Shown here in pieces: positions 41,100-62,105 of a stretch of 64,000 bases of DNA. A program made the translations under genes and the position numbers. The notes beneath the pieces were generated by a model that worked only from the letters and a program-made list of their open reading frames with translations, was not told the DNA's origin and ran no database searches. The DNA comes from Polyangiaceae bacterium (GTDB taxonomy: Bacteria; Myxococcota_A; Polyangia; Polyangiales; Polyangiaceae). Every line of letters starts with the position of its first letter. Within the stretch, counting starts at the first letter, position 1. The DNA lies in the NCBI GenBank assembly GCA_050287085.1, contig JBNKBE010000013.1:113931-177930 (forward strand). Direction: 5' to 3'.

Positions 41100-44090
41100 A
41101 TGCAGCCCGAGTCCTCCGTCGTGGGGGTCCTGTCCCCGTACACAGGCGGCTTCTACTACGGCGCCATCATCGCGGGGATCCAACGTGCGGCGCGACGGCG
41201 CGGTGCACGCGTCGTGGTGCTGCACACCACTGGACTGCAGCTCTGGTGGCCCGATAGCGACGCGCTGCCGCTAGCGCTATCGGACGTCGATGGTTGGATC
41301 GCCGTCAACGACGTGAGCGCGCCGCGTTTCTTGAACCACGTGGCTGCGCTGGGCCGTCCCCTTGTGTATCTGAGTCGCCGACCACAAGGTGTCAGCTGTT
41401 GCACCGTGCTGCCCGACAACCACGGAGGCACGCTCAGCGCAGTCCGACATCTGCTTGATCATGGTCATACTCGCATTGCTTTCGTCGGCTTGTTGAGCCA
41501 ACTCGACCTACGCGAACGCTATGAAGGCTATGTCGCGGCCCATCACGAGCGGGGTCTAGAGCCCGATCCGGCATTGCTATACTGGACTTCAAACAACCTA
41601 GAGCCGGATGGTTCTGACGTTGGACGTCAGATGGTGGCAGATGGTCTTCCGTGCACCGCTATTGCCGCTGGCACGGACAAGCTGGCCATCGGTTTGGTCT
41701 TGGCACTCCGCGAGGAGGGCGTCGAAGTCCCAGAGCAGGTAGCAGTTGTCGGCTTCGATGACATCGAGAAGGCGCAGTACGTCGATCCGCCGCTCTCGAC
41801 CGTGCGACAACGCTTCGACGTGTTGGCCGGTAAAGCGACAGACACACTTCTCGATCATCTGCATCATGCAACCAAGTTACCCAACACAGTGCGAGTGGCC
41901 ACCGCGCTAGTGACACGTGCTTCGTGCGGGTGCACGGGCTCGGCAGCAGAACGAGTCGCCGTCGAGGCGGAAAGCGATACGGGGCGTCCCGAAGCCCTCA
42001 CGCGAGCACTGCTCGAGCTGGCGGGGGCAACGAGTCAATACGCCATCGGGCGAAGCGCCTGGCCCGAAGCGGAACGCGTCGCCCACTATGTCCACGAGTT
42101 GAGTCAAGGTCGTCCGGCACCTGCAAAGCACTTGCGAGGCGCGTGGAAGGGCTTCGTCGACCACAACCACGACATCGATAGCATCGACCGCGCGATCGGC
42201 ATGACGGCCGACGCTGCACTCGCCTGGGCCGAGCTCGACGAGAGACGACAATACGTTCGCCAGGGCTTGCGCCCGCTTCGCGTGGAACTGATGCGTCAAT
42301 GGCGAGCTGCCCAACACGAACGCAATCGCTACTACGACTTCGTGGCTGAAGCCAACGGTAGGATCAATCAAGCGCTCACCGGCAACGAGTTCCGAGAAGC
42401 CAAGGCGTTGTCCTGGCTGAAGTGGACTCGTTTGCGTTATGGTGCACTCGGCCTGTGGGACATAGCCGCCAGCGGAGAACGACGACTCCGCATCGTCAGC
42501 GAGTACGGCGCGGGAGAAGAGTCGCTCCTGGGGCGTGACTTTGCAGCCGATGAGTTTCCTCCGCGCGCAGCTTCCGATCTCAGTGCAGAGCTGGGTCCCG
42601 ACAACGTGCTGATGGTCGTGCCCGTACCGGGGCAATCCGACAATCTAGGACTGCTCGCGGTTGCGGGCCCCATTGAAGTCGAGTTTCTCGACCACGTCGG
42701 CAGCCTGGGTGATTGGGCATCGCTACTGGGCGCGAGTTTGCAAAGAGAAAGAGTAGAGCAGAAGCTGCGCGAGTCCGCCTCGCACGACGCGCTCACGGGT
42801 TTGCCCAATCGAGCCCAGCTCATGGAGCGTTTAGCTGCCCTCCAGGAAGCCACGACCTTCGGAAGCCGCTTTGCCGTATTGTTCTTGGATCTGGATGACT
42901 TCAAGAACGTCAACGACAGCTTGGGGCACGTTGCAGGAGACCAGCTGCTGGTCGACATCGCAGCGCGACTCAGCGCGTCGCTGGAGGCAGGCGAGATGGT
43001 CGCTCGACTCGGCGGTGACGAGTTCGCAATCCTAGTGCCAGACATCCAGCACGAGGCCGACGCATTGGACGTCGTGACGCGTATTCAAGAAGCACTGCGG
43101 CCCCCTTTTGAGCTCGATGGGAATGTCGTATTCACGTCTTGCAGCGTGGGGGTCACCTTCAGCACCGAAAGCGACGCTCCGGCGACGGAGCTTCTGCGCA
43201 ACGCGGACACCGCGATGTATCGAGCCAAACTCGAGGGTCGCGCCCGGCACGAAATATTCCACCACGGCATGCACACGCAAGCCATGGAGCGCCTGCGCCT
43301 CGATACGCGGCTGAGGCGTGCGTTGGAAAGAGGCGAATTCGCGCTGCACTATCAACCCCTTCAATGCCAACGAAGCGGCCGCGCGATCGGCGCCGAGGCG
43401 CTCATTCGCTGGAATCATCCTCAGCAAGGGCTGCTCTCTCCCAGTCGCTTCTTAGCCGTCGCCGAAGAGGTCGGCCTGGCAATCCCGATCAGTCGCTGGG
43501 TCCTAGAGACGGCCTGCGCAGAAGCAAAGCACTGGCAACACGTGCAGGGTGCTCCCTACGTAAACGTCAACCTCCCAGCTCAGCATCTCAAGGATCCCAA
43601 CTTCGTAGCGCTGATCCAGGAGCTACTAGAACGCTTTGATCTTCCGCGAGGCGCGCTCGGGCTCGAATTGGTGGAGAGCAGCCTGGTTGAAGACCTCGAC
43701 GCCACCACGACCCTGCTCCTGCAGCTGGCTGATTTGGGGGTCCGCACCGCAATCGATGACTTCGGAATGGGCTATTCATCACTCAGCTACCTGAAGCGAC
43801 TCCCGGTACAGACTCTGAAAATCGATCGCGCTTTCATCGCGGGCGTGCCCCATGACGGGCGTGACGCAGCGATCGTCCGGGCCGTGATCGAGATGGGGCA
43901 CGGGCTGGATCTGCAAATCGTAGCGGAGGGCGTCGAACGGCCGGAACAGCTCGACTTCTTGCGCGCCCAAGGTTGCGACGCGGTACAGGGATTTTTGCTC
44001 AGCCGTCCCCTATCGGCCGGACAATGCCGCAACTTCCTCCACGCCCAACGGCCCAGGCCCGCCCTGGAGGAATCACTCCGAGTCAGCTGA
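41100..44090 (+). CDS. Diguanylate cyclase/phosphodiesterase with N-terminal LacI-type sugar-binding domain
   Basis: HLLDHGHTRIAFVG, VAVVGFDD, PPLSTVRQ; HDALTGLPNR, RLGGDEF; EALIRW, DDFGMGYSSL, AEGVE. Confidence 0.93.
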   Translation: MQPESSVVGVLSPYTGGFYYGAIIAGIQRAARRRGARVVVLHTTGLQLWWPDSDALPLALSDVDGWIAVNDVSAPRFLNHVAALGRPLVYLSRRPQGVSCCTVLPDNHGGTLSAVRHLLDHGHTRIAFVGLLSQLDLRERYEGYVAAHHERGLEPDPALLYWTSNNLEPDGSDVGRQMVADGLPCTAIAAGTDKLAIGLVLALREEGVEVPEQVAVVGFDDIEKAQYVDPPLSTVRQRFDVLAGKATDTLLDHLHHATKLPNTVRVATALVTRASCGCTGSAAERVAVEAESDTGRPEALTRALLELAGATSQYAIGRSAWPEAERVAHYVHELSQGRPAPAKHLRGAWKGFVDHNHDIDSIDRAIGMTADAALAWAELDERRQYVRQGLRPLRVELMRQWRAAQHERNRYYDFVAEANGRINQALTGNEFREAKALSWLKWTRLRYGALGLWDIAASGERRLRIVSEYGAGEESLLGRDFAADEFPPRAASDLSAELGPDNVLMVVPVPGQSDNLGLLAVAGPIEVEFLDHVGSLGDWASLLGASLQRERVEQKLRESASHDALTGLPNRAQLMERLAALQEATTFGSRFAVLFLDLDDFKNVNDSLGHVAGDQLLVDIAARLSASLEAGEMVARLGGDEFAILVPDIQHEADALDVVTRIQEALRPPFELDGNVVFTSCSVGVTFSTESDAPATELLRNADTAMYRAKLEGRARHEIFHHGMHTQAMERLRLDTRLRRALERGEFALHYQPLQCQRSGRAIGAEALIRWNHPQQGLLSPSRFLAVAEEVGLAIPISRWVLETACAEAKHWQHVQGAPYVNVNLPAQHLKDPNFVALIQELLERFDLPRGALGLELVESSLVEDLDATTTLLLQLADLGVRTAIDDFGMGYSSLSYLKRLPVQTLKIDRAFIAGVPHDGRDAAIVRAVIEMGHGLDLQIVAEGVERPEQLDFLRAQGCDAVQGFLLSRPLSAGQCRNFLHAQRPRPALEESLRVS

Positions 44091-45672: not shown

Positions 45673-46929
45673 ATGACCAGCCCAAGAGATCCGAAGCCAA
45701 CCCCCACCGCACCCCGAAACAAAGCACAGAAGCCGCCCGCCATGGGCGCTTGCAAGTCCTCCGGAGAAACGAGCTCAAAGCGCCCTGCTAGCGAGAGCGA
45801 GAGCGAGAGCGAGAGCGAGAGCGAGGTTGCGGCCAGCAGTAGCTCAGCTCCGACCCCGAGCTCCGCTCCGACCAGCTCAGCTCCGACCAGCTCAGCTCCG
45901 ACCAGCTCAGCTCCGACCCCGAGCTCAGCTCCGACCCCTAACGAGGCGGAAGCACTGCCGGAGCTCACGACGCGAGCGATCACCGACATTGAAAAGAGCT
46001 TCGGCAAAGGCGCCATCATGGTGCTGGGGCAGAAACCGGATCGCCGGTTTGCCGTCATCCCCTCAGGTTCCCCCACCCTGGACCGTGCGCTGGGCATCGG
46101 CGGCTATCCGCGGGGAAGGATCACCGAGATATTTGGCCCCGAAAGCAGCGGCAAGACAACGCTGACCCTGCACGCGATTGCGGAACTCCAGCGCTTAGGC
46201 GGAGTGGCCGCCTTCATCGACGCAGAACATGCCTTCGACGTCCGCTACGCGCGGGCCATCGGGGTAGACGTCAACCGCTTGCTGATCGCCCAGCCCGACT
46301 ACGGTGAGCAAGCCCTCGAGATATGCCAGCGCTTGACCAACGACGGCGCGGTTGACCTCATTGTCGTTGATTCGGTGGCAGCCCTGGTGCCCAAGGCCGA
46401 AATCGACGGCGAGATGGGGGACTCGCATATGGGTCTGCAGGCGCGCCTCATGAGCCAAGCGCTGCGCAAACTCACGGCCGTCGGCAATAAGAGCAACACG
46501 ACTTTGATGTTCATCAACCAGCTGCGCCAGAAGCTGGGAATCGTGTTTGGGAACCCGGAGACAACCACCGGCGGCAATGCACTCAAGTTCTACTCGAGCG
46601 TTCGCCTGGATGTTCGCAGAATTGGCAAGGTCACCGCTGGCGAGACGTTGATCGGCAACCGTACGCGCGTGAAGGTCGTGAAGAATAAGTGCGCGCGGCC
46701 GTTCGCTGAAGCGGAGTTCGACATCCGTTTCGGCAGCGGGATCGACGCGCTCAGCGACCTACTGGACGTAGCGGTCGGACAGGGCGTTGTGCAGAAGAAC
46801 GGCGCTCACTACGTCCTGGACGGCAAGGCACTCGCCCACGGCCGAGAACGGGCACGGGAAGCCCTCTGCACCGATCCGGAGCTCGCAACTCGACTCCGCA
46901 GCAAGCTGTCCGAACCGTGGGCCGCGTAG
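45673..46929 (+). CDS. recA: Recombinase RecA with a low-complexity N-terminal extension
   Basis: [68 protein letters not shown] before the ATG. Confidence 0.97.
45790..45936 (+). repeat. In-frame tandem repeats in the recA N-terminus: (AGCGAG)x6 and (AGCTCAGCTCCGACC)x6
   Basis: Encode (SE)n and SSAPT(P) repeats. Confidence 0.95.
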
Positions 46930-49418: not shown

Positions 49419-50753
49419 ATGAGTCTGCCCAATGCGATCATCGAAGCCCAGCTGGCAAGCCCAGACGCCGTCGAAGAAGCGCTCGCGCGGCAGGAGCTCT
49501 ACGGCGGCGACCTGGTAACGCAGCTGTTGGCTGTGGTTTCGGTGGAGGAACAGGCACTGCTGGACGTGGTGGCACGCACCCTGGCCGGCTCAGCGGCCGC
49601 CTCGGGCGAGTTACCTCCCGCTGCCCCTGCGGCCCTACAGCTCGTCTCGCGCGACACCGCCCGAGAGCTCGACGTTTACCCGCTGGACCTGACGGAAGGT
49701 ACACTCACCGTAGCGGTGGCGGACCCCAGCCACGCAAGCGCGCTGCTCGCTGAGCTTCCGTATTCACGCGTGCGAGTCCGAGCGCTCCTCGCACTGACTC
49801 CCCGCATTCGGCAGGCCATCGCACGCGACTACGCGCTCACGCTCGATCCCGCCTCCCAGAGCGCGCTCGCCCACCTCACCCGCGACGCAGGCCCAACCGC
49901 ACTACCGCCCCCCGTTGGTCACGGCGCGTCAGCGACCTTCTCCGCACTACCGCGCCCCCGTTCAGCCCCGCCTTTTGGCTTCCCCGATGATTGGTCGGAC
50001 GCGCTGACGCCCACAGGCGGCTCGCTATTGGCTGAGACAGCGAGACAGCCGACGGTGGTGGCGCCTTCGTTCGCCTACGATCGCATGCGCCCGCAGCCGT
50101 CCCAAGCTCTGCTCGATGCGGAGGTTTCGCTCGCCCCGAGCGAGGCACCCCAGATCACCACGAGGGGGCCCTACAGCTTGGCTCGGCTGTGTGAAGATCT
50201 ACAGAATGAACGGCGCCCTGATGAAGTGCTCGCTTCCTACGCCCATTTTGCGGCCCAGTTCTTCGACTACACAGCCCTCATCACATTGCGCGGCGACTAC
50301 GCGCGCGTCCGTGCGGCACGAGGGCGCGGCGCGCCCCTCGTGGAGGCTGGAGCCAACCGACTTCTGATTCAGGACTACCCTCTGCTGCGCGAGCTGCGCA
50401 ACGAAGGCCGCTACCGGATCTGTCCGCTCGTCAGTATCGAACCCAAGCTTGCAGAACTCTTTGCGCGCGAGGAGGAGCGCAGCTCCCTCTTCATTCCGCT
50501 CAAAGTGCGTGGTCGCGTTCTGCTGCTGCTATTCGGAGCCAACGACGACACACCCGCGTCTATCGAGTCCGTCGGCGAGTTGCTTGCCGCTGAGCCCTTT
50601 GTCAGTCAGGCCTTCGAGCGGGCTATCCATTTCCGCAAGATGCCTTCGCTTCCACCGCTGCAACCCTTGCCCCGCGTTCCCAAGAAGCCCTTCGCCCCGC
50701 CACCGCGCAGCCAGCGCGCAAGAATCCTTGCCGATGCGCTGAACGACGAATGA
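49419..50753 (+). CDS. Hypothetical protein with MshEN/T2SSE_N-like N-domain and FrgA-like/GAF-like C-domain
   Basis: EEALARQ..GGDL, LTVAVADP, IRQAIARDY; C-terminal IPLKVRGRVLLLLFG. Confidence 0.7.
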   Translation: MSLPNAIIEAQLASPDAVEEALARQELYGGDLVTQLLAVVSVEEQALLDVVARTLAGSAAASGELPPAAPAALQLVSRDTARELDVYPLDLTEGTLTVAVADPSHASALLAELPYSRVRVRALLALTPRIRQAIARDYALTLDPASQSALAHLTRDAGPTALPPPVGHGASATFSALPRPRSAPPFGFPDDWSDALTPTGGSLLAETARQPTVVAPSFAYDRMRPQPSQALLDAEVSLAPSEAPQITTRGPYSLARLCEDLQNERRPDEVLASYAHFAAQFFDYTALITLRGDYARVRAARGRGAPLVEAGANRLLIQDYPLLRELRNEGRYRICPLVSIEPKLAELFAREEERSSLFIPLKVRGRVLLLLFGANDDTPASIESVGELLAAEPFVSQAFERAIHFRKMPSLPPLQPLPRVPKKPFAPPPRSQRARILADALNDE

Positions 50754-51394
50754 GCCCAGCGGTCCGCGACGAGACGGAGCTGCTCACCCGACTCCGCGCC
50801 CGTGACGAAGCGGCCTTTGCGGAGCTGGTCGATTCCTGCCACGGACGGCTGGTTCAGCTCGCCATGAGCTTTGTTCGGAGTCGGGCCGTGGCGGAAGAAG
50901 TGGCTCAAGAGACTTGGCTCGCCGTCATGAACGGACTCGATCGCTTTGAGGGTCGCTCAGGGCTCCGCACCTGGATCTTCCGGATTCTCGCCAATCGCGC
51001 CAAAAGTCGCGGGTCGCGCGAGAGCCGATGCGTGCCGTTTTCCGCCTTGGGCAACGGTGATGAAACCACACTCGAAGAACACGACCCAAGCGCACCCGCC
51101 GTCGACCCGGCACGCTTTCAGAGCAATGGGATGTGGTCCGCGCCACCGCGCAGATGGAACGACGCCGCCGATCGTCTGCTCATGAACCGCCAAGGTCTCG
51201 AGCAGCTCAAGCGAGCTCTTGATTCGTTGCCACAAGCCCAGCGAGCGGTGGTCGTGCTGCGCGATATTGAGGGACTGGCTTCGGATGAAGTGTGTAACGT
51301 TCTGGAGCTCAGCGAGACCAATCAGCGGGTCCTCCTACACCGAGCCCGGACCAAGCTTCGGACCCTCCTCGAAGACTATATTGAACGGAGCTGA
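50750..51394 (+). CDS. ECF sigma-70 factor
   Basis: AEEVAQETW, FEGRS.LRTWIFRI, LP..QR.VVVLRDIEG, RVLLHRAR. Confidence 0.95.
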   Translation: MSPAVRDETELLTRLRARDEAAFAELVDSCHGRLVQLAMSFVRSRAVAEEVAQETWLAVMNGLDRFEGRSGLRTWIFRILANRAKSRGSRESRCVPFSALGNGDETTLEEHDPSAPAVDPARFQSNGMWSAPPRRWNDAADRLLMNRQGLEQLKRALDSLPQAQRAVVVLRDIEGLASDEVCNVLELSETNQRVLLHRARTKLRTLLEDYIERS

Positions 51395-51399
51395 GCGCC

Positions 51400-51636
51400 T
51401 TGATGACCTGCAAAGAGCTGAGTGAGCTCGTGACGGACTACACAGAGGGCAGAATGCCTCGCTGGCAGCGTGCTCAAGTACTGATGCACCTGGCGATGTG
51501 CCGTCACTGCCGCACGTACGTGCACCAGATGAAGACCACCGTACGCATTCTGCGTGAGCTCCCTGAAGCTCCGGTCCCCAAGACCCTACGCGACGAATTG
51601 GTGCGTCAGTTCAAGGACACGCCGTCAAAGTCCTGA
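51400..51636 (+). CDS. zf-HC2 (ZAS) anti-sigma factor
   Basis: TCKE...HLAMCRHC; directly downstream of the ECF sigma gene. Confidence 0.9.
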   Translation: MMTCKELSELVTDYTEGRMPRWQRAQVLMHLAMCRHCRTYVHQMKTTVRILRELPEAPVPKTLRDELVRQFKDTPSKS

Positions 51637-51643
51637 GGGCCCT

Positions 51644-52582
51644 CTACCGCGCCCCGTGCAGCCCGAAGGCAACACCCCAGGTTGCCGCGATCGCGGCGCG
51701 GGGCACAACGATGCCCAGCTCGAGGGCATTGCCAAAATCTGCATCGCAAACCGTCTCGCCACAGACAACCTCCGGCCCAAGTTGGAGATAAGACTGCAAC
51801 ATCGTGGGAATAGGGCTCCCGAGTGCCGTCACCGCGGCCTTGACACGCCTCAGCTTCTCCTTCCCGGACAGCCCAACGAGCTCCGGGTCGCGCGTCTCCG
51901 CGGAGCTCCCAGTCGCATCCCCCATGGCCCCGCATACCCGACTTGCGGCCCCCAGGAAGCGCAAACCCGGCCGGGCACGAAGAGGCGACGTTGCCCCTTG
52001 ATAAAGCCCTTCAACCTCGGCCACCAGCGCCTGCTTGGCTGCGGTCGGATAGTTCGCGTAGAGGGTTACATTCCCGAACAAGGTCGTGATGCGACGCTCG
52101 AGAACCACGCGTGCAAGGCCCTGCCAAAGAGCATAAAGGCCCAGGCGGGCTCTGCGGGCAGCGGGATGGATGAGCGAACGCCCGAGTTCCATCGCGACGG
52201 GCAACACGGAAGTGGTGAAGCTCTGTTCGTATTCGAATAAGCGATGGGTCCGCAGCAGGCGGAGCCCTCCTTGCACCGCACGCTGCCCCATTTGGAATCG
52301 CAGCAGCGCCGCAATCTCTTCACGTTCTGGATCCCACGCCACAAGCTGCTCGTAGCCAAGGGGATCGGTGTCGAGCTCATCCAGGTCCCTATTTAATCCA
52401 CGACCGGCGCCCGCCGCGCGAAACCCAAGCTCCCGAATACGCCCGATTTCGTCCAATAGCGGCGCGCATTCGAGTCCGTGAAACGCGTGTACCTGAAGAC
52501 CGCGAAAGTTGGCCTCCGGCTGCCGCGAGGCCAGAAAGTGCCGGAAATGCGACGGCGAAACTGGATCGATCACGGCGATCAT
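51644..52582 (-). CDS. GNAT-type amino-acid N-acyltransferase (GlsB/OlsB-like)
   Basis: EIGRIRE..FRAAGAG, DLDELD, QLVAWD, ELGRS, LWQGL, FGNVTLY, IP..L.SY, DADFG. Confidence 0.85.
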   Translation of the reverse strand: MIAVIDPVSPSHFRHFLASRQPEANFRGLQVHAFHGLECAPLLDEIGRIRELGFRAAGAGRGLNRDLDELDTDPLGYEQLVAWDPEREEIAALLRFQMGQRAVQGGLRLLRTHRLFEYEQSFTTSVLPVAMELGRSLIHPAARRARLGLYALWQGLARVVLERRITTLFGNVTLYANYPTAAKQALVAEVEGLYQGATSPLRARPGLRFLGAASRVCGAMGDATGSSAETRDPELVGLSGKEKLRRVKAAVTALGSPIPTMLQSYLQLGPEVVCGETVCDADFGNALELGIVVPRAAIAATWGVAFGLHGAR

Positions 52583-54144
52583 GCGGGCTCCCCCTGTTGG
52601 CTCAGGGGTGCGTAGCAGTCGGCGCGCAGTGCCTCACAGCGCGCACGCGCCGTATGGCCAAGCTGCACCAAGGCCGAGGCTGGCACCGCGTCCCGGACGC
52701 TCAGCGTGAGCGTCGTTGTCGTGGGCTTCAGCATCTCACGCGGAAGCAGCAACATCTCGAGATTCCAAGGTATGCCGAGCGCCCTTCGCAGGGTGGAAAG
52801 CCCATAGAACCAGCCTGAATTGCGACCGGAAATGTGGACGACGACCACGGGGCGCCGGTGACGCTCCGCAAGGCGAGTAAACGCAGCATCCCACGGCGGA
52901 TCGAGCACCTCACCCCGGGTGCGCCGAGACGTCGCTCCCGCAGGAAAGACGACCAGGGGAGCACCGTCCTGCAAAGCGCTTTCGAGAGCCGCGGGCAGTG
53001 CACGTTGCAGCTTACCGCGACGCACAGCCAGGGTATAGGGCTGCAGGTGTGGTATGGCTGTCAGTACCGCGTTGACCGGCGCCATCAAGGCTCCGTGCCG
53101 ACTGAGCACCCAAGCAAAGAGCGCGAGCCCGTCCAGTCCCCCCAGCGGGTGATTGGCCACGTAAATGGGCGCCTCATCAGGGGATGGCACGGGCCCCGTG
53201 ATCCGTACTGAAATGCCCAGGGCGGCCAAAGCACGCGCTGGGAACTCACGCGGCGTCATAGCGCCAAGAGCCGCGAAACGCGCGTTCAGCGTCCGCTCGC
53301 ACAGCACCCAGCGCAGCATTCTGAGCCAAGACTGCTGCCAGCGCGTGCCCGCTGCCCACTGGGGCACCATGCGCCCCAAGTCGAAGGTCCGTCGGGGCGG
53401 AACGCAGGCCGGAGGAGTGGACGCGGATTGGCCGAGCGGCAATGTGAAATGGGTCGGTGACTCGAATCCCCCGAGAGCATCGCGCCTGCGATACACAAGG
53501 CGCACCCGGTCCAGCGCAAGCAACACTTGGGTCACGCTCACCGTCGCCGCGTCAACACGACTCATCAACACATCGGCTTCCGCGCGGGAGCCCGCCGTCA
53601 GGTGAAAAGGAAGAAGGTCCGCGGGCTCGCTCCGGGACGCGACACGCTCTTGGCGCGCCAGGTAGCGCTCAAACTCCAGTGCACGATGGCGCTCGACCCG
53701 CGCGGGTTCGAGACTGGACGACGTCACCAAAGGCGGCACCACCACCAGCTGCTCCAAGGTGCGGCCGTCCCAGTGGAATGAAACCGGCGGAGCCCCCAAC
53801 TGAAACGCCACGATCTGAAAAGGCGGGTAGTCGGCCAAGGGGAGCCCCGGAACGGCGCGAACCAGGGCGCATAGGTCGCGCTCAAGGGCCAATCGAAGCG
53901 GTAGCTCACCGCGACTCCTCTTTCCGTCGGAGGCCGAGCCGCGATTCAGCACCGCCACCACCAAGCCGTGTTCCCCGACCACCAGCCAACTGCCGCCCCG
54001 CTGCGAGTCCTGTGGCCCCACCACCTGGAGTGGCTCGGGGGACAGGACTCGAGGAGGCAAGCCCGGGCTGCGATCGAGACGCTCGTCGCGGCTGAATATC
54101 AACGCCAGAGCTGCCTCGTCCTGCGTCCAGGTCAGGGTGCACAT
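52579..54144 (-). CDS. Fusion: TANGO2/NRDE domain + GlsA/OlsA-like (LPLAT) acyltransferase
   Basis: MCT start, SRDE, PQD..GGSW, VLN, SRG, TVS; then NHPLGGLDG, FPAG..SR, GRNS..FY, LLPREM. Confidence 0.85.
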   Translation of the reverse strand: MCTLTWTQDEAALALIFSRDERLDRSPGLPPRVLSPEPLQVVGPQDSQRGGSWLVVGEHGLVVAVLNRGSASDGKRSRGELPLRLALERDLCALVRAVPGLPLADYPPFQIVAFQLGAPPVSFHWDGRTLEQLVVVPPLVTSSSLEPARVERHRALEFERYLARQERVASRSEPADLLPFHLTAGSRAEADVLMSRVDAATVSVTQVLLALDRVRLVYRRRDALGGFESPTHFTLPLGQSASTPPACVPPRRTFDLGRMVPQWAAGTRWQQSWLRMLRWVLCERTLNARFAALGAMTPREFPARALAALGISVRITGPVPSPDEAPIYVANHPLGGLDGLALFAWVLSRHGALMAPVNAVLTAIPHLQPYTLAVRRGKLQRALPAALESALQDGAPLVVFPAGATSRRTRGEVLDPPWDAAFTRLAERHRRPVVVVHISGRNSGWFYGLSTLRRALGIPWNLEMLLLPREMLKPTTTTLTLSVRDAVPASALVQLGHTARARCEALRADCYAPLSQQGEPA

Positions 54145-54683
54145 GACGCCCCCCGGCGCGACTGCGAAGGCGTAGCCGCAAGCCCCTGCTCGTAGTGGCG
54201 CGTCGAGGGCGCAAGGTCGACTTCAGCGCCCAATGTGGCCTCAGCACGAGCTTCGCGCAGCAAGAACCTGAGGGTTGCAAGGTGGTGCACCGTGTGACTT
54301 GCGACCCAAAGCAGTTCGCGCCGCAGACTCGAAGCGCACGTCACTTCGGCTTCGCCGCGACGCGGACCGGTCATGTCCCTGACCTGCAGCTCCCTATCCG
54401 GGCTACCGGCCCACTGCTCAACCCAATCGCGAGCCACCAACAATGCGGCGCAGGCGGCCTCGGGCGCCGTTTCGACGGCCGTTCCGCGCGTGCGCCTCCA
54501 ATACACCACCCGCCCTTCTCGAGCCGAAGCCAATGCCTCCAAGTGGTCGAGTATGTGGCGCACGTGGCGACCAACAGAGCTCATGCCGGCGGCGTCGGCC
54601 CGGTATACCTCCGCCTCGAGACCGGCAACGAGCGCGTGGAGATCCTCCAGGAGCTCCGTTAGGTGATCACAGACGTCTTTCAT
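54132..54683 (-). CDS. DinB/YfiT-family metal-binding four-helix protein
   Basis: SVGRHVRHILDH, RxRGT.VE, SSLRREL, SHTVHH. Confidence 0.88.
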   Translation of the reverse strand: MKDVCDHLTELLEDLHALVAGLEAEVYRADAAGMSSVGRHVRHILDHLEALASAREGRVVYWRRTRGTAVETAPEAACAALLVARDWVEQWAGSPDRELQVRDMTGPRRGEAEVTCASSLRRELLWVASHTVHHLATLRFLLREARAEATLGAEVDLAPSTRHYEQGLAATPSQSRRGASCAP

Positions 54684-55355: not shown

Positions 55356-55422
55356 CCTGAGAAGAGCAACCCTGAGAAGAGCAACCCTGAGAAGAGCAAC
55401 CCTGAGAAGAGCAACCCTGAGA
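55356..55422. repeat. 15-bp tandem repeat CCTGAGAAGAGCAAC x4.5
   Basis: Read directly; degenerate units upstream; lies just past the stop of the next minus-strand gene. Confidence 0.95.
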
Positions 55423-60282: not shown

Positions 60283-60377
60283 GACCTGGGACCGTCCCCG
60301 AGTGCGTGGCCCACGTCAACGAGTTTGAACGCGTAGCGACTCCCCGGGCTGAGCGCCCTGCGCTAGGGTCGCCAGGT

Positions 60378-62105
60378 ATGAATCTTCCCGCCCCCCTGAC
60401 CCCCGAGATCGGCGTGGGCTTGAGAGCCCCTCACTTTGGCGAGGTGCTGCGCGGCTCTGCGGAGGTGGACTTCTTCGAGGTGGTGTCGGAGAACTTCATG
60501 GTCGCTGGCGGCAATCCCCTATACGTGCTCGACCGGGTTCGCGAGCGCTATCCCATCGTATTGCACGGCGTATCCCTCGGCATCGGTTCGCCTGAAGAGC
60601 CTGACCGTGAGTATCTGCGGCGGCTCAAGCAACTGATTGGACGCGTGCAGCCTCGCTACGTGACGGACCATTTCTGCTGGTCGCGCCTCGGAGCCTCCCA
60701 CCTGCACGACTTGCTCCCCTTGCCTCTCACCGCCGCGATGGCCGAACGCATCGCCCGAAGGGCCAATGCTCTGCAGGATTACCTCGAGGTGCCTTTTGGG
60801 CTCGAGAATACCTCGACCTACGCGCGCTTCGCCTGCGACGAGATGAGCGAAAGCGAGTTCATCAACGCCGTGTTGGCTCAGAGCGAGGTGGGCGTGCTGC
60901 TGGATGTCAACAACGTCTTTGTTTCCGCCTGCAACCACGGCTTCGACGCCCACGCTTTCGTCGAGCAGATCCCCGCAGAGCGCGTGCTCCAGCTTCACAT
61001 GGCGGGCCACACCGACCGGGGCCGATACTTGCTCGACACCCATCACGAGCGCATCTGCGCAGAGGTCTGGCAGCTCTACCAGCATACGCTGCGTTGCCTG
61101 GGTCCGATCCCCACGTTGATCGAGTGGGACGAAGGGCTACGGGGTTTCGATGAGCTCTGTGAGCTGCGCCGGACTGCCCTCACCCACGCTCGCGAGGCCA
61201 CGCCACAGTGCTCGCCACAGTGCTCGCCACAGTGCGAAGCGCCGGGGAGGCGCCGCACCCCGAGCACCCGCTCTCGACCCCAACCCCCCGCTGAAACCCG
61301 CATCACCCTGACCCAAGTCGATACTCAGCTGGGGTGGTTTGGCGAACAGGTCCGGGCCCTTCGCGCTCGCCCAAGCGATGCCGCCGCGGCCCGCGTTGCA
61401 GAGCAGCGTCTCGCGCCCCATCCGCGGATGTCCGGCGCTGACCAACTCGAGGTCTATCGCGAACAGTTTTGGCTCCGCCACACCGGCGCGCTGCTCGAAG
61501 ACTTTCCGGCGCTGGCAGCCTGGCTCGGTCAAACGGCGTGGGAGGCGCTCGTGGAAGGTTATCTGCTGGAGTCCCCCCTTCGCAGCTTCAGCCTGCGAGA
61601 TCTGGGCGCTGGACTCGCGGCGTACGTGGCGGCGCTCCTGCCAGACGACCCGACCGGCCAAGCATTGGCTACGCTGGAATGGGCCCAGGTCGAGGTATTC
61701 GACGCCAGCGACGCGCTGCGTCCGCTCGGCTCTGGCGCGTTCATTTCTCAAGCGCTTCGGGTCCTCGAATTGCCGCCCGAGGTGGACGTTCTGCGTCGGA
61801 CGCTGCTCCGTTCAGAAGCGCCCCAAGCGAGGGCGGAAGCGAAGCTGCAAACGCCCTTCACCAGCCCCACCGCGCCCGACGCCCTCGCGGAGCGGCTCTG
61901 CGTCTACCGCACCCAGCAACGCACCGTCGCCAGCACGTCTTTGGCCCCTCGCTGCGCCCAACTTTTACAACTGCTGACGGCTGCGACTTCGCTCGAGCTG
62001 GCCTTCGATCAATACCAAGAGAGGGGGCATAGTGTCCAACCTGCCGAGGTCCGCGCTTGGTTTGCCCAGTGGGCGAAGCGGGGCTGGTTGACCCTTGCGC
62101 CCTAG
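60378..62105 (+). CDS. DUF692 (MNIO) enzyme fused to a DUF2063-like partner domain
   Basis: GVGLR, ENFM, HGVSL, DHFCW, DLLPLP, LEN, LLDVNN, HMAGH, DTH, IEWD; then LEVYREQF..R....LLEDFP, LATLEWA. Confidence 0.9.
   Translation: MNLPAPLTPEIGVGLRAPHFGEVLRGSAEVDFFEVVSENFMVAGGNPLYVLDRVRERYPIVLHGVSLGIGSPEEPDREYLRRLKQLIGRVQPRYVTDHFCWSRLGASHLHDLLPLPLTAAMAERIARRANALQDYLEVPFGLENTSTYARFACDEMSESEFINAVLAQSEVGVLLDVNNVFVSACNHGFDAHAFVEQIPAERVLQLHMAGHTDRGRYLLDTHHERICAEVWQLYQHTLRCLGPIPTLIEWDEGLRGFDELCELRRTALTHAREATPQCSPQCSPQCEAPGRRRTPSTRSRPQPPAETRITLTQVDTQLGWFGEQVRALRARPSDAAAARVAEQRLAPHPRMSGADQLEVYREQFWLRHTGALLEDFPALAAWLGQTAWEALVEGYLLESPLRSFSLRDLGAGLAAYVAALLPDDPTGQALATLEWAQVEVFDASDALRPLGSGAFISQALRVLELPPEVDVLRRTLLRSEAPQARAEAKLQTPFTSPTAPDALAERLCVYRTQQRTVASTSLAPRCAQLLQLLTAATSLELAFDQYQERGHSVQPAEVRAWFAQWAKRGWLTLAP
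61201..61235 (+). repeat. 12-bp tandem repeat CGCCACAGTGCT x3 in the DUF692 linker
   Basis: Encodes PQCS PQCS PQC. Confidence 0.9.

Follow-up and report, generated by a model that had tools for sequence, protein, structure and literature searches.

The operon and its genes

The subject of this analysis is a three-gene operon in a 64,000-nucleotide stretch of the genome of a Polyangiaceae bacterium (GenBank assembly GCA_050287085.1, contig JBNKBE010000013.1, positions 113,931 to 177,930 of the forward strand), hereafter called the window, in which a domain of the NRDE/TANGO2 family is fused to an O-acyltransferase of the kind found in aminolipid synthesis. The window genome (G000) is 96.8% complete. 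For one gene near the operon the closest Atlas clusters are mostly from Myxococcota, which points to a probable myxobacterial host. All three genes lie on the minus strand and overlap one another, as an earlier note on this sequence had described. The first (54132-54683, 183 aa) encodes a protein of the DinB/YfiT fold, recognised by a match to PF12867 and a histidine triad. Its stop codon falls within the opening codons of the NRDE-encoding stretch, giving a 13-bp overlap (54132-54144) that recurs identically in 17 of the 56 related loci holding both genes. The second gene (52579-54144, 521 aa) encodes the fusion, as indicated by Pfam matches, motifs, a structural model and full-length relatives. 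It comprises an NRDE/TANGO2 domain (aa 1-237, 53434-54144) with conserved residues and the predicted alpha-beta-beta-alpha fold of the N-terminal nucleophile (Ntn) enzymes, a proline-rich linker (aa 238-255, 53380-53433) that is open in frame and varies in length between relatives, and an O-acyltransferase domain (aa 256-515, 52600-53379) that matches PF19576 with an E value of 1.6e-32. An ATGA overlap (52579-52582) leads into the third gene (51644-52582, 312 aa), which encodes a GNAT N-acyltransferase of the OlsB/GlsB family with a PF13444 score above the cut-off.

A promoter scan of the operon region found no sigma-70-like site and no excess of terminators. No RNA data set was listed as containing the sequence, a result that carries no information about expression. 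Recent horizontal transfer is not supported by composition, since the GC content at third codon positions is 0.69-0.74 in the operon, inside the range of 0.69-0.79 in its neighbours.

Occurrence and ancestry of the fusion

The earlier note had proposed that the linker be checked for a stop codon or a frameshift, and its sequence contains neither. A 9,497-bp Logan contig spans the linker without a difference, but it is not independent evidence, as it comes from a run that may itself have supplied the window sequence. Independent support for the fusion is provided by its occurrence in other genomes at 25-40% identity, and on this ground an assembly artefact was rejected. The search for the same architecture and neighbourhood elsewhere thus recovered fused relatives, so that the two domains are not always unlinked in relatives of the window protein. 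A congener (G008) carries the same DinB / fusion / GNAT operon at a different chromosomal place, with identities to the window proteins of 28% for DinB, 34-39% for the fusion and 45% for the GNAT, and the same operon is also found in Gammaproteobacteria. Within the genus the DinB gene is present in 2 of 18 genomes, which are these same two, and no further full-length match was found among 300 other genomes of the phylum.

A protein library at 50% identity held 38 NRDE-like::acyltransferase proteins (the query included) among the best 150 matches, together with two DinB::acyltransferase proteins (P0038 and P0051), and an Atlas cluster with the fusion architecture has 56 members; a word-index protein search returned only the query and one other protein. 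A set of 80 GTDB loci retrieved by NRDE motif, many of them on short contigs, contains 15 fused and 65 unfused examples. The fused loci consist of G008, seven Balneolota and seven Gammaproteobacteria, the latter from Alkalimonas, Idiomarina, Arsukibacterium, Bacterioplanes and Ectothiorhodospiraceae. The NRDE::acyltransferase fusion recurs in at least three phyla. The earlier note knew of no described fusion of this type, and none was met in a literature search that covered few subscription journals and judged part of the papers by title and opening of the abstract; no paper pairing NRDE family proteins with DinB was returned either. Fusion proteins may be among the homologues tabulated in the PMC12971839 and PMC10470608 supplements, which lay outside that search. 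The architecture is real, recurrent and apparently undescribed.

With regard to ancestry, the fused acyltransferases group with GlsA and away from OlsF. When more standalone relatives are included, they split into a main clade and a small group (P0026 and P0032), each with a support of 99 in the Shimodaira-Hasegawa-like approximate likelihood ratio test (SH-aLRT). The small group is nested among standalone acyltransferases and its NRDE domains sit among unfused NRDE proteins, a branching that points to two separate fusion events as likely. Five short acyltransferases fall inside the main fusion clade, at least one of which is a partial call of a fusion. A tree of the NRDE domains, built without 11 proteins (ten decayed or deleted, one duplicate) and without 25 near-copy loci, places the subfamily apart from classical NRDE proteins with an SH-aLRT of 100. 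The fusion-linked GNATs, in a quick tree that carried long-branch warnings, form one long-stemmed clade (SH-aLRT of 99) beside proteins that pass the GlsB cut-off and apart from the OlsF/OlsB-like proteins.

The NRDE/TANGO2 domain

The earlier note had recognised a complete NRDE/TANGO2 domain with Cys2 and an SRDE motif, and this description holds. The TANGO2 hidden Markov model scores 30.6 bits against a cut-off of 22.6, with the profile match confined to aa 1-86, and the predicted fold is whole over aa 2-239. The AlphaFold model of the fusion, built from 27 fusions, has a mean predicted local distance difference test score (pLDDT) of 88.1 and a predicted template modelling score (pTM) of 0.90, the latter of which suggests that the two domains are packed in a fixed arrangement. 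The predicted NRDE domain aligns with human TANGO2 (9bwa) over 229 residues with a VIA Z of 21.9 and a root-mean-square deviation of 3.6, and the best Foldseek matches of the model are 8sv7 and 9bwa at E values of about 1e-9 (7e-10). Profile score and predicted alpha-beta-beta-alpha fold together assign the whole domain to the TANGO2/NRDE family (PF05742). A phmmer search of the PDB gave no match, and a profile search of the same database recovered TANGO2. The next structural neighbours after TANGO2 and the structural-genomics protein CV2077 are Cys-Ntn amidases (Z of 17.5-19.5), including isopenicillin N acyltransferase, bile-salt hydrolases, penicillin V acylase and NAAA, most of which cut or form N-acyl amides.

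The window copy retains every residue that is conserved across the NRDE subfamily. Cys2 (54139-54141), Ser18-Arg19-Asp20-Glu21, Asn67, Arg78-Gly79, Ser143, Arg154, His181, Arg196 and Ser203 are all present in it. A Cys-Ntn signature is apparent in Met1-Cys2, Arg19, Asp20 and the first asparagine (Asn67), all of which are conserved in the subfamily. For TANGO2 a catalytic set has been proposed from structure only, consisting of Cys2, Asn25, Arg26, Asp27, Asn75, Asn157 and Lys166 (PMC13044924), and Cys2, Arg19, Asp20 and Asn67 of the window protein correspond to members of this set. Arg154 is invariant in 38 aligned domains, and the profile alignment does not put it on Lys166 of TANGO2, a position that is arginine in other Ntn enzymes.

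The resemblance to human TANGO2 (8sv7, 9bwa) thus extends from the fold to Cys2, the NRDE Arg-Asp-Glu, Asn67 (Asn75 in TANGO2) and Arg78-Gly79 (Arg88-Gly89). In contrast, the two proteins are 18-20% identical, the window domain is fused to a membrane-lipid acyltransferase, Asn25 of TANGO2 is replaced by serine, as it also is in 7 of 36 unfused relatives, and Asn157 by Ser/Thr. Because of this low identity and the loss of the oxyanion asparagine, any transfer of findings to human TANGO2 is indirect. The Cys-Ntn hydrolases share the fold and the N-terminal cysteine with the window domain, but at 8-16% identity and with an oxyanion asparagine that the window domain does not have. Bile-salt hydrolase (BSH) and isopenicillin N acyltransferase are described as both hydrolysing and forming N-acyl amides (PMC13044924).

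Conservation within the fusions is uneven. After removal of four with incomplete N-termini from the 38, the key residues are intact in 21 of 34 fusions, which are 25-40% identical to the window protein. Among the others, one has a single change, one a large internal deletion, three are partly decayed and eight are without Cys2. The decayed copies are scattered over the fusion tree, and one Balneolota bin carries one intact and one decayed fusion. The core residues are kept in all 79 of the locus copies compared, a set chosen by NRDE motif and from which decayed standalone copies are therefore excluded.

The acyltransferase domain and its GNAT partner

The C-terminal domain had been described as an HX4D-type acyltransferase, which needs correction, as the motif is HX5D (His332 at 53149-53151, and Asp338). 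Of 135 locus acyltransferases examined, 127 gave a motif match, and every one of these has this spacing. The other motifs given for the domain, NHPLGGLDG, FPAG (aa 400-403) and GRNS (aa 440-443), are all present. His332 is invariant in 27 fusions, and its partner is Asp in 24 and Glu in three. The domain is a member of PF19576 (Acyltransf_2; 112.9 bits against a cut-off of 27, aa 272-511) with His332 and Asp338 in place, a family that marks GlsA and the N-terminal domain of OlsF (PMC11631085). In a limited fold comparison, the best Foldseek match of the C-terminal half is squash glycerol-3-phosphate acyltransferase (E of 1.8e-5). An assignment to PlsC/OlsA (PF01553) was rejected at 17.7 bits against a cut-off of 23 and with HX5D spacing instead of HX4D. 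Membership of GlsA (NF053697) was rejected at 151.6 bits against 260, a model on which two other fusions score 146 and 200 and four control GlsA-like proteins 336-406, and membership of OlsF (NF052615) at 119.3 and 112.9 bits for the two genes against 620.

The GNAT scores 31.6 bits on Acetyltransf_5 (PF13444) against a cut-off of 22.4 and belongs to the OlsB family, in agreement with the earlier note. It falls outside GlsB (NF053696), with 131 bits against a cut-off of 300; eight other fusion-type GNATs score 168-190 on this model and 11 control proteins 327-521. The pair had been likened to GlsA/GlsB and to OlsA/OlsB/OlsF. The part of this comparison that concerns the wider GlsA/GlsB-OlsF family stands, whereas the cut-offs for GlsA, GlsB and OlsF are missed, as is PF01553 for OlsA. 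The operon is hence a variant of the two-step aminolipid synthases that lies outside GlsA/GlsB and OlsF by cut-offs. As the enzymes branch beside GlsA/GlsB yet miss these cut-offs, the product, judged from sequence, is likely to be an aminolipid of unspecified head group.

Among the closest known systems, GlsB/GlsA of Bacteroidota resembles the window operon in having a separate GNAT and PF19576 O-acyltransferase with the acyltransferase gene upstream, and it forms the nearest branch in both trees. The GlsBA pair is reported to be sufficient to make glycine lipid in E. coli (PMC12971839). GlsA differs from the window protein in having no NRDE domain, and given the scores of 131 of 300 and 151.6 of 260 and the long stem of the GNATs, glycine specificity does not carry over. 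OlsF contains the same two acyltransferase families in another arrangement, with the O-acyltransferase fused to the GNAT and the NRDE protein separate, whereas the window operon joins the O-acyltransferase to NRDE and encodes the GNAT as a free-standing protein.

A second OlsB/OlsF-type GNAT is encoded elsewhere in the window genome (G000:C1:438643-439707, minus strand), without a matching O-acyltransferase nearby and adjoining a ferredoxin-reductase-like open reading frame. Another N-acyl amino acid may be made by this protein.

The DinB protein

The first gene of the operon matches DinB_2 (PF12867) at 29.6 bits against a cut-off of 24.8. In 43 aligned DinB relatives His43 and His134 are invariant and His130 is found in at least 90%, and this conserved triad is likely to bind a metal. 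The profile match and the three-histidine site place the protein in the DinB/YfiT superfamily. Its model has a pLDDT of 90.9, and the top Foldseek rows are DinB/YfiT structures, none of them reaching an E value of 0.001. The four-helix fold and the histidine triad are common to this superfamily, which includes bacillithiol and mycothiol S-transferases and putative metal hydrolases. The window protein differs in belonging to a subfamily of its own with a YxxRxR motif and in being encoded nearly always directly upstream of NRDE. The genes are adjacent in this order in 53 of 56 loci, at -22 to +20 bp.

A DinB gene turned up in 11 of the 16 fusion genomes, in 5 of 17 unfused genomes without a local copy and in none of 8 genomes of the same phylum with a lone NRDE gene; a strict co-dependence of DinB and NRDE is unsupported by these counts. 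Neither can the two DinB::acyltransferase proteins (P0038 and P0051) be taken as an independent Rosetta stone, as they are nested in the NRDE-fusion clade beside a decayed fusion.

The wider DinB-NRDE module

The window operon is a reduced, ligase-free form of a wider DinB-NRDE module. Across the 80 GTDB loci, DinB is present in 56 (8 fused, 48 unfused) and an OlsB-family GNAT in 40 (9 fused, 31 unfused). An ATP-grasp ligase of a first type, often with DedA, is found in 39 and a second ATP-grasp pair in 11, all of them unfused, and a YHS gene in 31 (1 fused, 30 unfused). An acyltransferase lies near NRDE in 31 of the 65 unfused loci and none lies nearby in the remaining 34, the former being an uneven sample of 19 Vibrionaceae, seven Gemmatimonadota, two Planctomycetota and one each of Nitrospirota, Acidobacteriota and Calditrichota. 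In 80 metagenome control loci chosen by a GlsA-like acyltransferase motif, neither NRDE nor DinB was found (0/80), and the link is therefore specific to a subset; one control locus (L052) probably represents a fusion that is truncated where its contig stops.

The module-type ATP-grasp ligase was found in none of the 16 fusion genomes, which are mostly metagenome bins, in a search that did detect it in the positive control and in 2 of a further 11 unfused genomes. A dependence of the NRDE role on the ligase is accordingly unsupported. Profile searches of the window genome found no ligase, DedA, YHS or DoxX-like partner.

The earlier note had seen in the fusion a Rosetta stone tying TANGO2 to lipid acylation. 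The recurrence of the fusion and the 31 unfused loci with an acyltransferase bear out this tie, but it does not extend to the ATP-grasp loci without a nearby acyltransferase. Most contexts of the subfamily hold an amide-forming enzyme, the 65 unfused loci including 31 with a GNAT, 39 with the first and 11 with the second type of ATP-grasp enzyme. Since the subfamily also occurs with ATP-grasp enzymes and no nearby acyltransferase, and in genomes without a PF13444 match, the common thread is amide chemistry and not acylation as such.

A second kind of amide pathway with the same DinB-NRDE pair is represented by the Oceanospirillales-type operon, which is without an acyltransferase (L161, L164, L165, L171, L175, L176, L185, L202, L207, L216 and the short L153) and has the order YHS / DoxX-like / two ATP-grasp-like / membrane transporter-like / DinB / NRDE. 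In a Cyclonatronaceae bin (L243:3385-6766), DinB, YHS, a fusion-type GNAT and a fatty-acid-hydroxylase gene, which we take to be OlsE-like, stand in a row, with the NRDE::acyltransferase fusion on another contig.

The vca0646-0649 operon of Vibrio cholerae appears to be an unfused version of the module. VCA0646 is OlsF, reported to make ornithine lipid alone in E. coli and to be induced at low salt (PMC12186959), and VCA0650 has been named a D-Ala-D-Ala ligase (PMC7600106). In a published table a GNAT, a YHS, an NRDE and two hypothetical genes follow one another and change together by 1.3-1.6 log2-fold (PMC11573629). This order matches the 19 Vibrionaceae loci of the 80-locus set, the equivalence resting on annotation and gene order. 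The V. cholerae locus differs from the window in having YHS; in the window genome YHS, DedA and ATP-grasp were not found. The operon is activated by HapR, and overexpression of vca0646-0647 or of the whole operon raises cell death, for which vca0648-0649 are dispensable; deletion of the operon is reported to be without effect (bioRxiv 2024.09.23.614608).

Function of the fused domain

The operon is read here as making a phosphorus-free aminolipid in two steps, with the fused domain in an accessory role, as a cysteine amidase or transacylase by which the lyso-aminolipid would be edited or recycled, a scheme which, taken whole, is proposed tentatively and falls a little short of an even chance. 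The first two steps follow from the enzyme families. The GNAT would very probably couple a 3-hydroxy fatty acid to an amino acid, and the C-terminal domain would, with equal probability, add a second fatty acid by an ester bond. GlsA and GlsB are the models on which the acyltransferase and the GNAT reach their highest scores, and both enzymes branch next to proteins that lie above those cut-offs, which supports this part of the scheme. An initiator methionine that precedes a small residue is cleaved off, and Ntn enzymes depend on a free N-terminus. In the fusion, removal of Met1 would free Cys2 as the N-terminal nucleophile, an established chemistry with which the N-terminal position of the domain fits, and catalytic activity of the domain is on balance probable. 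Rather less assured, and somewhat under an even chance, is the step in which Cys2 would react with the amide bond of the lyso-aminolipid and pass the acyl group on to water or a different amine. DinB would take part in this turnover as a metal-dependent protein. Amide editing is favoured because the structural neighbours mostly act on N-acyl amides and because most contexts hold a GNAT or an ATP-grasp enzyme. The NRDE domain is likely to be accessory to lipid synthesis, since 8 of 34 fusions are without Cys2 and the unfused OlsF makes its lipid alone.

A number of observations weigh against amide editing. The asparagine of the oxyanion hole (Asn157 in TANGO2, Asn172 in BSH) is missing, its position being occupied by Ser142 in the window protein according to a mapping that goes through the LSN motif asparagine of classical NRDE proteins (the subfamily consensus is TTSS), and a Ser/Thr at this position may weaken amide hydrolysis. 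Cys2 has gone from the eight fusions mentioned, and four more are partly decayed or deleted. Eleven of 34 genomes with an unfused NRDE gene and no nearby acyltransferase, including a complete Amphritea genome, lack a PF13444 match, so the subfamily is not confined to aminolipid makers. No enzymatic activity of a TANGO2-family protein was reported in the literature searched. In V. cholerae the genes that are likely to be NRDE and DinB, as identified from the PMC11573629 table, are dispensable for, and do not prevent, the death caused by OlsF/YHS overexpression (bioRxiv 2024.09.23.614608), which argues against simple detoxification. Finally, human TANGO2 is reported to bind C16 and C18:1 acyl-CoA, which its NRDE mutant does not (PMC11867700), a result that favours a role in thioester chemistry.

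The domain would then handle acyl thioesters, either binding or hydrolysing acyl-CoA or acyl-ACP or relaying the acyl group via Cys2, and so select the second fatty acid. Besides the behaviour of human TANGO2, the functionally characterised enzyme nearest in fold is acyl-CoA:isopenicillin N acyltransferase, the fusion partner of NRDE is always the O-acyltransferase and never the GNAT, and loss of the oxyanion asparagine would matter less for a reactive thioester. This explanation is nonetheless judged unlikely, though by no means negligible, as the subfamily persists beside ATP-grasp ligases, in the 34 unfused loci without an acyltransferase and in the 11 genomes without PF13444, and both GlsBA (PMC12971839) and OlsF (PMC12186959) function in E. 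coli without NRDE. The earlier note had considered Cys2 as an acyl carrier, a thioesterase or an amide-editing nucleophile; that the NRDE domain serves as an obligatory acyl carrier is unlikely in view of the fusions without Cys2, the two proteins with DinB instead of NRDE and the ability of OlsF to work alone.

An explanation of equal standing, and as such also improbable, is that the fusion arose as a side effect of operon compaction, when two neighbouring genes from a single module merged. An ordinary GlsA-like enzyme would then carry an NRDE domain that contributes nothing to its product and decays wherever it is dispensable. Repeated independent decay across the fusion clade is consistent with such a passenger, as are the replacement of NRDE by DinB in two proteins nested in that clade, the Balneolota genome with an intact and a decayed copy, the short acyltransferases within the main clade and an origin in one or two fusions only. 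It fits poorly with the retention of all key residues in 21 of 34 fusions at 25-40% identity, the fully intact window copy and its confident two-domain model, the probable occurrence of two separate fusions to related acyltransferases, and the persistence of the domain in genomes in which searches for the ligase, DedA and YHS partners came back empty.

Heme or metal trafficking in the manner of HtpA of Shewanella, a bacterial homologue reported to bind and traffic heme (PMC10470608), with DinB-NRDE(-YHS) serving redox or metal stress and not lipid metabolism, would suit the ferric-reductase/Rieske, thioredoxin, CcdA or YHS genes of some related loci, but is very improbable in view of the nonspecific nature of the only heme contacts seen in TANGO2 crystals (PMC13044924), the separation of the subfamily from classical NRDE proteins (SH-aLRT of 100), the acyltransferase fusion that it leaves unexplained and an operon with no cytochrome gene.

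If, then, the amide-editing reading is followed to its furthest point, DinB and NRDE would be the first known enzyme set to degrade or swap the head group of an acyloxyacyl aminolipid, with NRDE twice joined to an O-acyltransferase and the window operon as the minimal system for Cys2 catalysis, a claim that is doubtful at present. The words 'amidase' and 'degradation' are both absent from two recent aminolipid reviews.

Other features of the window

An extracytoplasmic function (ECF) sigma factor and zf-HC2 anti-sigma pair (50750-51636, plus strand) converges on the operon. The stop codons of the two sides are 7 bp apart with no terminator-like site between them, and ECF genes related to that of the window lie near seven other NRDE loci. 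Upstream of the operon is a perfect 15-bp tandem repeat of 4.5 copies (55356-55422), at which the Logan contigs break.

Further away, a 599-aa open reading frame (60306-62105, plus strand) joins an MbnB/TglH/ChrH (DUF692) domain, which modifies ribosomally synthesised and post-translationally modified peptides, to DUF2063 and NGO1945_C, with a 12-bp tandem repeat in the linker; DUF2063/NGO1945_C is usually encoded as a separate partner gene. RecA (45673-46929, plus strand) carries some 100 additional N-terminal residues composed of SE and SSAPT repeats, and a gene at 41100-44090 (plus strand) fuses a LacI-type periplasmic-binding-protein domain to GGDEF and EAL domains.

Significance

Deficiency in TANGO2 underlies a human disease, and what the protein does is disputed, the candidates being a heme carrier, an acyl-CoA binder and a cysteine Ntn hydrolase. 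The window subfamily is distant from human TANGO2, has one canonical catalytic residue missing and is likely to be accessory in its own pathway, which limits what it can say about the human protein. Nevertheless, a bacterial TANGO2 relative fused to a lipid acyltransferase has a product that is visible by liquid chromatography-mass spectrometry, so that the question of Cys2 becomes testable by a single point mutant. The operon also offers a biochemical handle on genes of the quorum-sensing-controlled operon of V. cholerae that were called functionally unknown by the authors who described it (bioRxiv 2024.09.23.614608). If the amidase reading is true, an enzyme for turnover or editing would fill a gap in the aminolipid field.

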